Below are positions 37,251 to 41,655 of a DNA stretch of 43,746 nucleotides, piece after piece. Origin of the DNA: Escherichia phage NicoleGrasset_Bas72; the sequence record PQ850621.1; one strand, given 5' to 3'. Position numbers and translations under genes: made by a program. Below the pieces are notes generated by a model. That model made no database searches. It was not told the DNA's origin and was given only the letters and a program-made list of their open reading frames with translations. Each line of letters starts with the position of its first letter. The stretch's first letter is position 1.

Positions 37251-37280
37251 TTGAAAGTTCTTGACACATGTTTGTATAAT
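37251..37280 (+). promoter_or_regulatory. sigma70-like promoter candidate TTGAAA-N18-TATAAT
   Basis: In divergent control region; would transcribe through palindrome 37307-37347 toward hairpin 37482-37510. Confidence 0.35.
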
Positions 37281-38406: not shown

Positions 38407-38631
38407 ATGAGCGAGTGGATTAAGTGTAGCGAGCGGATGCCGGAGCCTTATGAATACGTTCTTGTAACTGATGGTTTTGTCGGTTGTGAGGTTATGCGTG
38501 TTAATTCAGATGGCTACTGGGGACCAGCGAAGAGTTTATACCACGGTGATATCTCCCACTGGATGCCGTTACCCGAGCCGCCAGAAGTGTTATGTTATAC
38601 TGTAACAATAGTTTGGGATTTTACTGAGTGA
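38407..38631 (+). CDS. DUF551-like small protein
   Basis: N-terminus MSEWIKCSERMPEPYEYVLV matches the recurrent W-x-x-C-x-E-R-x-P-E pattern of DUF551 phage proteins. Confidence 0.5.
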   Translation: MSEWIKCSERMPEPYEYVLVTDGFVGCEVMRVNSDGYWGPAKSLYHGDISHWMPLPEPPEVLCYTVTIVWDFTE

Positions 38632-39237: not shown

Positions 39238-39651
39238 GTGAACACTAAAAACGAAGTATTCGAGTACCTGATTGACCAGCTACGGCAGCAGGTAAATAAC
39301 AACCAGTGCGAAGACCTGGCGCATGAGGTGCAGTCACTTAAAAACCAGTTACGTGATGCTTCGTCGCAGATTAAGGATTTGCATCTGGCGCTGGTTCGGG
39401 CTACGGGTGACGCGGAAGCGTACAAACTTATCCGCAAACAGGAGCAATCCGGTTGCTGTAAAGAGGATACCCAGGAATGCGAGCATGATTGGGTGCTAGA
39501 TGAAAAAGGGGACTACTTCATTTGCGCTAAATGCGGTAAGCAAGAATCGGAATTGAGCGATTGCCAACACGCTAATACCGTCGGTTTGCGCAAAGGCTTT
39601 GCGCAGGGTTTTACTAAAAAGTGTCTTGATTGCGGGGCTAAACTGAAATGA
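39238..39651 (+). CDS. zinc-finger / coiled-coil protein
   Basis: GTG start with GAGGAGAG SD; C-terminal Cys pairs (CAKCGK...CQH...CLDCG). Confidence 0.5.
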   Translation: MNTKNEVFEYLIDQLRQQVNNNQCEDLAHEVQSLKNQLRDASSQIKDLHLALVRATGDAEAYKLIRKQEQSGCCKEDTQECEHDWVLDEKGDYFICAKCGKQESELSDCQHANTVGLRKGFAQGFTKKCLDCGAKLK

Positions 39652-39851
39652 CCAGCATCTTATTTATCTGGGTACTGTCCGCAGGCCAGATGCACCTGGC
39701 GGCATCAGAAACGTTTTACTCGATGGAGGCGTGCCAGTCAGCGGCACGCGCCGCTGAGAACGCGCACTTTCTGTTTCAGGGTGACAAGCCCAACGATTCA
39801 GAGGTACGCGCTATCTGCTCACCTAAGCGACTTGGAAAACAGGAGAAATAA
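39648..39851 (+). CDS. small protein with N-terminal hydrophobic segment (possible secreted or membrane protein)
   Basis: MTSILFIWVLSAGQMHLAASE hydrophobic N-terminus; overlapping start/stop. Confidence 0.45.
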   Translation: MTSILFIWVLSAGQMHLAASETFYSMEACQSAARAAENAHFLFQGDKPNDSEVRAICSPKRLGKQEK

Positions 39852-39852
39852 C

Positions 39853-40056
39853 ATGGTACAGAGATATTCTAAGTATGGGTCCGACAACCATTTCATTGAC
39901 CGCCACGGGAAGTGGGTTAAGTTTGAGGACTACCAGAATCTTGACCTAAAGCTGTTGGAAGTTGAAGCCGAGTTACAGAAATACAAGGACCAGTTCCCGG
40001 ATTACGTCGAGTGCGCGAACTGTGGGTCAGTTACACATGTGGGAGGGGTGGAGTAA
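39853..40056 (+). CDS. small protein, MVQRY paralog 1
   Basis: AGGAGA SD; first 15 nt identical to start of 40056-40250. Confidence 0.5.
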   Translation: MVQRYSKYGSDNHFIDRHGKWVKFEDYQNLDLKLLEVEAELQKYKDQFPDYVECANCGSVTHVGGVE

Positions 40057-40250
40057 TGGTACAGAGATATGAGGTAAAAGCGTGGGGCCTGCCAGAGCCT
40101 GAGATGGCTGAGTACGCATACGGCGATTATGTAGAATATGACGCTTATCTGAAACTTGAAGCAAAGTTACGTGAATTCGCTAAGCAGGTGCTAGATAGCC
40201 CGTGTGACTGGAAGACAAATGAATTAGCGCGCGAGATTCTTGGAATATGA
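40056..40250 (+). CDS. small protein, MVQRY paralog 2
   Basis: GGGAGGGG SD; ATG overlaps upstream stop; shares YxxYxxLxLKLxE pattern. Confidence 0.5.
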   Translation: MVQRYEVKAWGLPEPEMAEYAYGDYVEYDAYLKLEAKLREFAKQVLDSPCDWKTNELAREILGI

Positions 40251-40540
40251 GCCTTGCAACTGACATCCTGAAACGAAGCGGCCTTGCGCCGCTGTCACCG
40301 AGAGCGAAGACACGTATACACAAGCGTCGCCGTAACGTGCTGTACCCAGAGATACAAGAACGGCGTAAAGCTATCCGCGCCTGTGGATTCCAGAACGGAA
40401 AGGCCGTGAATCTAGGAGAGTTTAAAACACAGGAACGCGCGGCAATCGCTAATCGGTTATTTAATTACTGGAAATCGCTCGGATACGATGATATTCCATC
40501 GAAACCGCAGAGACGACAATACATCTGGCGTCATAAATAA
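40247..40540 (+). CDS. small basic hypothetical protein
   Basis: 97 aa; R/K-rich; overlapping start. Confidence 0.45.
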   Translation: MSLATDILKRSGLAPLSPRAKTRIHKRRRNVLYPEIQERRKAIRACGFQNGKAVNLGEFKTQERAAIANRLFNYWKSLGYDDIPSKPQRRQYIWRHK

Positions 40541-40615: not shown

Positions 40616-40924
40616 TTGGATAAATTTACTGAAACAGTGACGGGGTGGCTTCTCGCTGCCGCATTAGCTGGTGGGGTAATAGGCTTACGGCAACACAAAG
40701 CCACTATTACCGGCCCTGTCGATGCTCTCTGTTTTCTCGCCACTGGCTTTGCGTGCGCCGTATTCGGTGCGCCTCTCGCCGCTCAATGGTTCGGTATCGC
40801 AGGTGAACGCGAAATAGCGGGCCTTGGATTCATCATTGCTATTCTCTGGATGCCAATTTATTCCCGTCTCTCTGGCATTGTCGCCGGAGAATACATCGCA
40901 CGTCGCGGAGGTGGTAATGAATGA
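40616..40924 (+). CDS. putative holin (TTG start)
   Basis: Multiple TM-like hydrophobic segments, charged C-terminus RRGGGNE; GGAGGA SD 7 nt before TTG; directly upstream of endolysin. Confidence 0.55.
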   Translation: MDKFTETVTGWLLAAALAGGVIGLRQHKATITGPVDALCFLATGFACAVFGAPLAAQWFGIAGEREIAGLGFIIAILWMPIYSRLSGIVAGEYIARRGGGNE

Positions 40925-41189
40925 GTTATTCTGGTTCGGTGGTATGCTGGCAATCGGGGGCACATCGCTGTTTAATGTGTATCATCCCAGCGTGGACGAC
41001 GGATTATTTGGCCGGGTGCTCTATATCCTGACTGCCATCGTCTGTGCTGCCGGATGTATCCACCTGTTACAGGGCAGCATGTCACCAACGCTGCCTGAGA
41101 CGTTAATCACATTAGTTGCGCTGCGTCAGATTCGCCAGGTGTGGCTGTCATACGGAGGACATAAGCGTGTCTCGAAATATTTCAGATAA
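40917..41189 (+). CDS. second membrane protein of lysis cassette (holin/antiholin-like)
   Basis: Hydrophobic segments FWFGGMLAIGGTSLF and VLYILTAIVCAAGCIHLL; overlaps both neighbours. Confidence 0.5.
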   Translation: MNELFWFGGMLAIGGTSLFNVYHPSVDDGLFGRVLYILTAIVCAAGCIHLLQGSMSPTLPETLITLVALRQIRQVWLSYGGHKRVSKYFR

Positions 41190-41655
41190 TGGATTGCATT
41201 TTACCGCCGCGTTCGAGGGATTCCGAGGAACTGCGTATCGTGCTACGCCAAATGAGAAGTACATGACTATTGGGTACGGTCATTATGGGCCAGACGTAAC
41301 GCCAGGCAAGACCATCACCCCGGGACAAGGCCTCCTGTTACTGAATCGTGATATGGCTAAGGCCGTAGCTGCGGTTGACGCAGCAGCACACCATTCATTG
41401 ACACAGGCACAGTTCGATGCAGTGTGCGACCTGGTATACAACGCAGGTGCTGGTGTGATTGCTGCTACTACCGGCACGGGTAAGGCACTGCGTTCTGGTG
41501 ATATTGCAACGCTGCGGGCTAAGCTGACACTGTTCATCAACCAGAACGGCAGACCGTTACTTGGACTGCGTCGTCGTACCGCCGGTCGTCTGGCGCTGTT
41601 CGACGGTAAACCGTGGCAAGAGGCAGAGGCTATCGGGCGCGCGGTGAAAGGTTGA
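41167..41655 (+). CDS. endolysin, phage lysozyme (GH24, T4-lysozyme-like)
   Basis: GTG start with GGAGG SD; motifs FEGFRGTAYRATPNEKYMTIGYGH characteristic of GH24 lysozymes. Confidence 0.7.
   Translation: MSRNISDNGLHFTAAFEGFRGTAYRATPNEKYMTIGYGHYGPDVTPGKTITPGQGLLLLNRDMAKAVAAVDAAAHHSLTQAQFDAVCDLVYNAGAGVIAATTGTGKALRSGDIATLRAKLTLFINQNGRPLLGLRRRTAGRLALFDGKPWQEAEAIGRAVKG

Follow-up and report, generated by a model that had tools for sequence, protein, structure and literature searches.

Two short neighboring genes of Escherichia phage NicoleGrasset_Bas72 (PQ850621.1) are paralogues, and very probably both are long-established tandem representatives of an extensive, unannotated family of modular small phage proteins, an evolutionary account that rests on sequence comparison. 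In the window analyzed here, namely the whole 43,746-nt stretch, gene 1 (67 aa) occupies positions 39853..40056 (+) and gene 2 (64 aa) positions 40056..40250 (+), and both proteins start with MVQRY. The comparisons described below establish the paralogy of the pair, its family membership, the modular make-up and copy-number variation of the family, and the position of identity breakpoints at the 15-nt sequence that encodes MVQRY (the 15-mer).

The window can be assigned as a near-complete genome of a Kagunavirus-type (Guernseyvirinae) E. coli siphophage, an identity backed by synteny with related phages. Its genes run rightward to 24.1 kb, leftward from 24.5 to 36.5 kb, and rightward again from ~36.7 kb. 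The large ORFs of the first rightward block are taken to be packaging and virion genes. The second rightward block is composed of small genes with a lysis cassette at its end; a sigma-70-like site with 11/12 matches lies at 37251-37280, and the small-gene operon is probably driven by the host RNAP. The 1-kb region around the gene pair is matched by 300 phage records, chiefly of Escherichia and Salmonella phages, with Bas71 (96.5%) and SCS92/NTEC3 (97.4-97.7%) being the closest.

Two conserved genes border the slot that holds the pair. The upstream flank gene (67 aa, phrog_3766; 39648..39851, +) is 92-100% identical at the amino acid level in nearly all loci, with one locus at 78%, and is truncated or absent in L022, L023, and L025. 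The downstream flank gene (97 aa, phrog_9632; 40247..40540, +) is ~85-98% identical in most loci. Further upstream, a 137-aa protein (39238..39651, +) combines an N-terminal coiled coil with a Cys-rich tail (CC..C.H...C..C...C...C..C). The genes are tightly packed: the 137-aa gene runs into the 67-aa gene with an ATGA overlap, the stop of the 67-aa gene lies one base ahead of the ATG of gene 1, gene 1 and gene 2 overlap by one base (TAATG, where the A of the gene 2 ATG is the final A of the gene 1 TAA), and the ATG of the 97-aa gene overlaps the TGA of gene 2, again as ATGA. As read from the sequence, this spacing suggests a translationally coupled operon, and the packing of gene 1 and gene 2 would be tight enough for coupling of these two. 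A lysis cassette (40616-41655, +) begins 76 nt past the 97-aa gene, its counterparts in Bas71 being annotated as two holins and an endolysin, and the MVQRY slot is thus the last variable block ahead of lysis. A DUF551 protein (Pfam E = 1.5e-15) is also encoded 1.2 kb upstream of the pair, at 38407-38631 (+).

Gene 1 consists of MVQRY, a hypervariable cassette SKYGSDNHFIDRH (aa 6-18; 39868..39906, +), a conserved hinge GKWVKFEDYQNLD (G-x-W-V-x-F-E-D-Y-x-x-L-D; 39907..39945, +), a helix, and the C-terminal module C1 (AELQKYKDQFPDYVECANCGSVTHVGGVE; 39967..40053, +). The cassette is replaced by unrelated sequence in Bas71, with near-identical flanks. The hinge motif is kept in distant relatives, and its residues G19, V22, and Y27 are nearly invariant in alignment A2. 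C1 carries the zinc-type residues of gene 1, a single CxxC (C54, C57) and H62. In gene 2, MVQRY is followed by the cassette EVKAWGLPEPEMAEYAY (aa 6-22; 40071..40121, +), the hinge GDYVEYDAYLKLE (G-D-Y-V-E-Y-D-A-Y-L-K-L-E; 40122..40160, +, as aligned with relatives), and a C-terminal two-helix module, C2 (AKLREFAKQVLDSPCDWKTNELAREILGI); this protein has one Cys. Its cassette is replaced in L004 and is found elsewhere with C1, C2, C3, and C4 C-termini, at array position 1 or 2. Each gene is preceded by a candidate ribosome-binding site, read from the sequence: a Shine-Dalgarno AGGAG at 39842..39846 (+), 6 nt ahead of the gene 1 ATG, and GGAGG at 40042-46, within the last codons of gene 1, for gene 2. 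With an in-frame GTG at 39781 (39781-39852, +) as its start, gene 1 would reach 91 aa and cover the 3' end of the 67-aa gene. This longer start is used in some databases (P0158), and the extension reads ..TIQRYAL.., a faint echo of the family start. We favour the ATG at 39853 based on the Shine-Dalgarno site and the family-wide N-terminus.

The initial annotation of this locus had described tandem paralogues with an identical 15-bp start and a common Y-x-x-Y-x-x-L-x-L-K-L-x-E pattern. The 15-nt starts of gene 1 (39853..39867, +) and gene 2 (40056..40070, +), both ATGGTACAGAGATAT, indeed form an exact direct repeat with a spacing of 203 nt at the gene coordinates as claimed. These are the only two matches in the whole window, and none more appear with 2 mismatches allowed (expected 0.10). 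The pattern was nearly right: gene 1 has F for the first Y and gene 2 has A for L, and what the two proteins have in common is [FY]-x-x-Y-x-x-L-x-[LA]-K-L-x-E within a longer G-x-[WY]-V-x-[FY]-[ED]-x-Y-x-x-L. Their similarity reaches well past the first five residues in both alignment and profile comparison. Pairwise BLASTP gives 13/40 identities (~33%, E = 0.005). Profile A5, which represents the N-terminal module and was built mostly from distant relatives, matches gene 1 with E = 1.7e-12 and gene 2 with E = 3.1e-15, and the next ORF in a six-frame scan of the window reaches only E = 0.13. Gene 1 and gene 2 are thus true paralogues and the sole two family members in this genome; the same scan found no third copy in the window.

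The family extends far beyond this phage. An exhaustive profile search returned 219 clusters (at 50% identity) at E < 1e-3 from many phage groups, most of which match profile positions 1-45 only, starting from their own residue 1; homologue clusters number 360 for gene 1 and 29 for gene 2. The family consensus reads MVxRY, ~16 variable residues, GxYVxYEDYxxLE, and then a helix. Both window proteins carry the family N-terminus M-[VI]-x-[RK]-[YF] at residues 1-5, in the form MVQRY, which starts 116/148 close homologues, and MVxRY is the consensus of 116 distant relatives. Both also carry the family hinge G-x-[WYF]-V-x-[YF]-x-D-Y-x-x-L 10-25 residues past the start, as GKWVKFEDYQNL (aa 19-30) in gene 1 and GDYVEYDAYLKL (aa 23-34) in gene 2; the G, V, D, Y, and L of this hinge are at least 90% conserved in alignment A5. 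The N-terminal module heads proteins of ~68-kb E. coli phages, including Mansfield, WFH, and FEC19, and is also found in Skatevirus VSt472. In lambdoid phages it is followed by a coiled coil and by the exo-xis/ea-region domain of the HK97 gp37 type, and its other tails include a DUF551-like domain (P0289) and the 'GGENPVPG...DIIAYRVV' domain of phrog_9174. Two N-terminal modules occur in one polypeptide in P0174 and P0178. On a 64 kb metagenomic phage contig unrelated to Kagunavirus (L026, 3598-4921), two overlapping tandem paralogues start with MVKTFRF... and MVKRLTM... and have the hinge and a C-terminal end, REGGKADG, in common. Members of the MVxRY family seem to have duplicated in tandem repeatedly.

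Existing classifications capture this family in pieces. Gene 1 matches phrog_29624, to which no function is assigned, over the full length (E = 9e-23), and weak matches to the N-terminal 40 positions of this PHROG are seen for gene 2 and the distant relatives; phrog_29624, 23083, 22955, 1378, and 37174 divide the family by C-terminus. Neither Pfam nor NCBIfam has a model that matches the N-terminal module in either gene or in the distant relatives scanned, and Pfam, NCBIfam, and PADLOC scans of these proteins gave no significant family, only coiled-coil models and a sub-threshold Lar match. PADLOC contained no match for the gene pair or for either flank gene (67 aa and 97 aa), and the 137-aa neighbor gave only weak matches to coiled-coil JetC (E >= 0.012). 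The database matches are all annotated 'hypothetical' and point to no function, and no study of these genes was found in the literature on Kagunavirus and hypervariable tandem paralogues.

AF2 models based on the family alignment are of moderate confidence overall (pLDDT 69-72). The gene 1 model (mean pLDDT 69) contains strands at residues 4-8, 12-15, and 21-22 and a helix at 24-47, followed by an unconfident C-terminus. The gene 2 model contains helices at 28-47 and 52-62 with a pLDDT of ~88, and its N-terminus is of low confidence. Both models place a long helix straight after the hinge (24-47 and 28-47, respectively), and the distant relatives match leucine-zipper-type or coiled-coil models only in Pfam. 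The family proteins would likely form a coiled-coil oligomer. A Foldseek search against BFVD retrieved members of the family together with further small phage proteins, likewise uncharacterised, that combine a sheet and a helix in the same way; one of these is a protein of Pseudomonas phage TC6 (TMq 0.63). The PDB yielded no match, the best E of the sequence profile search being not below 0.36.

Comparison of 148 close homologues and 25 related loci resolved the proteins into five parts: MVQRY, a hypervariable insert, the hinge, an optional coiled-coil cassette, and a C-terminal module. The insert is 11-24 aa long and falls into 18 unrelated clusters, with 82 distinct sequences among the 148 proteins. 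The coiled-coil cassette (~27-35 aa) is of at least five types. The C-terminal modules comprise C1, AELQKYKDQFPDYVECANCGSVTHVEGVE, which in some proteins runs on into a zinc ribbon resembling the tail of the 137-aa protein; C2, KLREFAxQV..PC..T.E.AREILGI; and C3 and C4. Using rough regular-expression classes, we counted approximately 66 combinations of insert, middle, and C-terminus in 153 proteins, as well as about 109 four-gamete quartets, in which two inserts and two downstream architectures are present in all four pairings. Independent invention of unrelated 11-24 aa inserts is implausible, and these combinations thus indicate recombination. The 137-aa protein takes part in this exchange: P0148 is a chimera of its N-terminus with C1, P0172 and P0151 join an MVQRY head to its zinc-ribbon tail, and in L025 it is fused straight to the C1 end and the MVQRY gene is gone.

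The same comparison bears on the suggestion of the initial annotation that identical starts could promote recombination or copy-number variation, and on its proposal to check copy number in related genomes. The variable slot between the 67-aa and 97-aa genes measures 184-792 nt, and across the 25 related loci it holds 0 to 3 MVQRY genes: one in ~10 loci, two in ~12, and three in SCS92, with no intact N-terminal module in the slots of L025 and L023. If the metagenomic genomes with these empty slots are viable, the MVQRY genes would appear to be dispensable. Both SCS92 and NTEC3 have three MVQRY-type genes. These two phages also carry a homing endonuclease gene (L002 1033-1506 in SCS92) between the 137-aa-like gene and the conserved 67-aa gene, which is missing from the window.

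Segment identities computed over 210 locus pairs vary sharply along the slot. The median nucleotide identity is 92.5% for the upstream 200 nt, 93% for the 15-mer, 48.8% for the insert, 67% for the hinge, and 94% for C1, where every pair reaches at least 87%. Insert identity is bimodal, in that 93% of the pairs do not exceed 60%, 5% reach at least 85%, and only 2% fall between, and it is uncorrelated with that of the flanks (r = 0.08), which are 92-94% identical. Judged from these alignments, the inserts change by cassette replacement, not by drift. The DNA of MVQRY, the hinge, and the C1 start is conserved and the stretches between are not, so that these segments probably serve as seams for homologous recombination. 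The breakpoints of individual alignments support such a role for the 15-mer. Between the position-1 gene of L022 and the position-2 gene of SCS92 (L002), identity rises from 44% in the upstream 45 nt to 100% in the 15-mer and is 99.6% over the following 255 nt. Between gene 1 of the window and gene 1 of Bas71, identity drops from 96% upstream and 93% in the 15-mer to 38% in the next 45 nt. In the multiple alignment, L004 shows no difference from the window throughout gene 1, and the two sequences part right after the ATGGT of gene 2. The identity breakpoints thus coincide with the edges of the 15-mer, from which we infer recombination at this seam. The suggestion made in the initial annotation is supported by comparison among phages. 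A length of 15 nt is short for RecA-type recombination, so that crossovers may depend on a phage recombinase or on more extended homology in the flanks.

The initial annotation had also read the identical starts as evidence of a recent duplication, and this part of it does not hold. Past the first 15 nt, gene 1 and gene 2 are 53.7% identical in DNA, the level of shuffled controls (55.6 +/- 3.8%); the two genes have no 8-mer in common outside the 15-mer, and no DNA repeat extending past 15 nt was found. The two copies have separate sets of orthologues, which are distributed over Kagunavirus and Jerseyvirus phages. NTEC3 and KMB35 contain a gene 1 with 100% identity and Bas71 a gene 2 with 100% identity, the partner gene in these phages differing from that of the window; by these matches, the gene pair of the window is itself a mosaic. 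Codons 2-5 vary synonymously in relatives (GTA/GTG/GTT, AGA/AGG/CGC/CGA, TAT/TAC). The starts differ by a mean of 2.5 nt within one genome versus 2.45 nt between genomes, and about one pair in six is fully identical, within and between genomes alike. Comparison within and between genomes thus gives no sign of recent copying or of gene conversion between the two starts, and together with the synonymous variation it attributes the 15/15 identity to conservation of the peptide and a common codon preference.

Taken as a mechanism, these observations suggest the following picture. MVQRY would be an invariant N-terminal strand, the identical 15 nt being its codons, kept by selection on the peptide and by the common codon preference. 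The hinge, G-x-W/Y-V-x-Y-E-D-Y-x-x-L-E, would lead into a long helix or coiled coil, which may end in a lone CxxC-His knuckle (C1 in gene 1) or a helical hairpin (C2 in gene 2). Recombination at the seams, within the array and between co-infecting phages, would create, delete, and re-sort whole genes as well as sub-gene cassettes. This would explain how phages with near-identical flanks come to bear different cassette combinations, and it suggests that some tiny 'hypothetical' phage genes diversify by swapping cassettes at short seams inside proteins of 60-90 aa instead of by drift. Mosaic accessory genes are already known in phages; the gene pair offers a clean case in which sub-genic cassettes are shuffled within a widespread, unannotated family.

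As to function, we tentatively propose that the two genes encode oligomeric coiled-coil accessory proteins, produced from the rightward small-gene operon ahead of lysis, whose insert and C-terminal module may bind host or defence targets and determine which target is recognized. An accessory role in host interaction is suggested by the turnover of cassettes on a conserved scaffold, the apparent dispensability of the genes, their position in a small-gene operon, and the parallel with the ea region of lambdoid phages; the turnover of cassettes may reflect an arms race with the host.

The parallel with the ea region raises the alternative that these proteins are reduced forms of the early developmental regulators typified by lambda Ea22. 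They would then assemble as coiled-coil tetramers, bind a host protein through their terminal domains, and modulate host physiology, a reading which we regard as doubtful. Lambda Ea22 combines a short variable N-terminus, a coiled coil, and a swappable C-terminal domain (including DUF551, which has been reported in the V2 variant of Stx-phage Ea22), and it is mosaic and tetrameric (PMC10834534). The architecture and mosaic make-up of the MVxRY proteins are the same, and both kinds of gene sit among small accessory genes and are mosaic between phages. Some MVxRY-headed relatives have C-terminal parts homologous to lambdoid exo-xis/ea proteins such as HK97 gp37, and P0289 carries a DUF551-like tail. 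However, Ead_Ea22 (PF13935) gives no match at E <= 1 for gene 1 or gene 2 and none at E <= 0.01 for ten relatives, and the Ead/Ea22-like protein of VSe13 starts with VSEINYQALREVAERA, not MVxRY. We take the N-terminus of lambda Ea22 itself to be unrelated to MVxRY. Unlike the window proteins, Ea22 is a tetramer of 182-aa chains from temperate phages and is pro-lysogenic; the phage studied here is virulent, and a pro-lysogenic role cannot apply.

The HK97 gp37-like proteins (exo-xis / P22 ea region; phrog_492/614/368) are linked to the window genes in that some members share the N-terminal module, followed by a coiled coil. P0260, P0286, P0399, and Skatevirus VSt472 gp78 start with M-S-V-K-R-Y ... 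D-G-x-Y-V-x-Y-E-D-Y-A-x-L-E. The C-terminal domain of this group (TPATDAFLAEVRAQGV...) is missing from the window genes, and most lambdoid homologues match from residue 29 on only, so they have other N-termini. One ea-region protein with an MSVKRYE head (P0357, Enterobacter, 298 aa) appears to contain an HNH-AP2 endonuclease domain inserted in frame between the coiled coil and the C-terminal 'AAQLRKG' end. A P0357-related protein with a different N-terminus in Salmonella phage VSe13 (L028, 1396-2022) is annotated 'HNH endonuclease' and looks like an uninterrupted HK97 gp37-like protein.

A second alternative concerns the 15-mer, which might be kept not for the peptide but as a nucleic-acid element, be it for translation initiation, as a protein-binding site, or as a recombinase crossover site. 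Codon usage in the 15-mer is strongly skewed to GTA-CAG-AGA-TAT/C, with the rare AGA included, at both array positions, and the breakpoints at the 15-mer agree with this idea. RNA structure at the two starts was not significant (z = -0.29 and +1.08); the RNA at the start of gene 1 folds no more than shuffles (z = +1.1), which suits an open initiation region. On the other hand, seven variants of the 15-mer occur at position 1 and eight at position 2, including synonymous ones (GTG, GTT, AGG, CGC, CGA, TAC), distant relatives keep the peptide M-V-x-R-Y and not the DNA, and the pattern occurs nowhere else in the window. Maintenance as a nucleic-acid element is thus unlikely, and selection on the peptide remains our preferred reading of the 15-mer.

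It is very unlikely that gene 1 is a Lar-type restriction-alleviation zinc ribbon and that the family is anti-restriction. C1 and the Lar zinc ribbon both contain a CxxCG knuckle, and Pfam Lar_restr_allev weakly matches gene 1 (13.1 bits) and reaches 23.3 bits (E = 7.7e-5) in relatives in which a second zinc knuckle follows on from C1. There is also a weak match between the N-terminal module and the N-terminus of phrog_3592 ('Lar-like'), and Skatevirus VSt472 has a Lar-like gene close to a member of the family. Every score, however, is under the Pfam cut-off of 28.6 bits (PF14354), and gene 2 gives no match. With its one CxxC, gene 1 provides half the zinc ligands and lacks the second Cys knuckle, and gene 2 is without a zinc motif. 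Phenotyping of the BASEL collection found Kagunavirus phages to be highly sensitive to restriction-modification systems (PMC11990801), so that an anti-restriction role is not apparent. When the alignment of fused C1 and zinc ribbon was compared with a bona fide Lar-like protein by hhalign, the probability was 1.8%, and the Lar reading was rejected. The foldon of T4 fibritin was also considered, as a lead only: its short aromatic beta-hairpin (..YVRKDGEWVLL..) on a coiled coil presumably resembles the R-Y ... D-G-x-W-V-x-Y beside the helix of the MVxRY proteins. The foldon is C-terminal and trimerises a fibre, and no link between it and the MVxRY proteins emerged from sequence or fold searches.

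That gene 2 arose recently by copying of gene 1 and still shows this origin in the identical 15 nt, as the adjacency, common strand, and identical first 15 nt of the genes might suggest, is extremely improbable given DNA at the level of shuffled sequence past the 15-mer, proteins ~33% identical over 40 aa, separate orthologues of each copy in other phages, the same peptide start in distant phage groups, and within-genome starts no closer than between-genome ones. For annotators, the rule to be drawn is that identical starts of neighboring small phage genes do not equate to recent duplication.

More speculatively, MVxRY may mark a large undescribed superfamily of coiled-coil accessory proteins that works as a natural combinatorial library. 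If so, a conserved scaffold of beta-strand and hinge would carry two sets of interchangeable parts: the hypervariable inserts on one side and, on the opposite side, small effector domains such as the zinc knuckle, the helical hairpin, and DUF551-like and ea-region domains. Tandem arrays and conserved DNA seams would let virulent and temperate enterobacterial phages recombine their specificities so as to bind or evade variable host defence or takeover targets. The N-terminal module, new in that it is absent from Pfam and NCBIfam, ties the virulent Guernseyvirinae, the 68-kb E. coli phages, and Skatevirus to lambdoid exo-xis/ea proteins. The identical gene 2 in Bas71, a member of the BASEL community collection, makes deletion and swap experiments against defence panels feasible.

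A further feature of the C1 region is a second open reading frame. In many loci, the +1 frame over C1 and the junction of gene 1 and gene 2 (window 39966-40072; L001 1818-1955 among the relatives) contains 36-65 codons without a stop and reads ..SYRNT[KR]TSSRITSSARTVGQLHMW.GWS.G.EI. Rather than a gene, this open frame is probably a side effect of the strong conservation of the C1 DNA.
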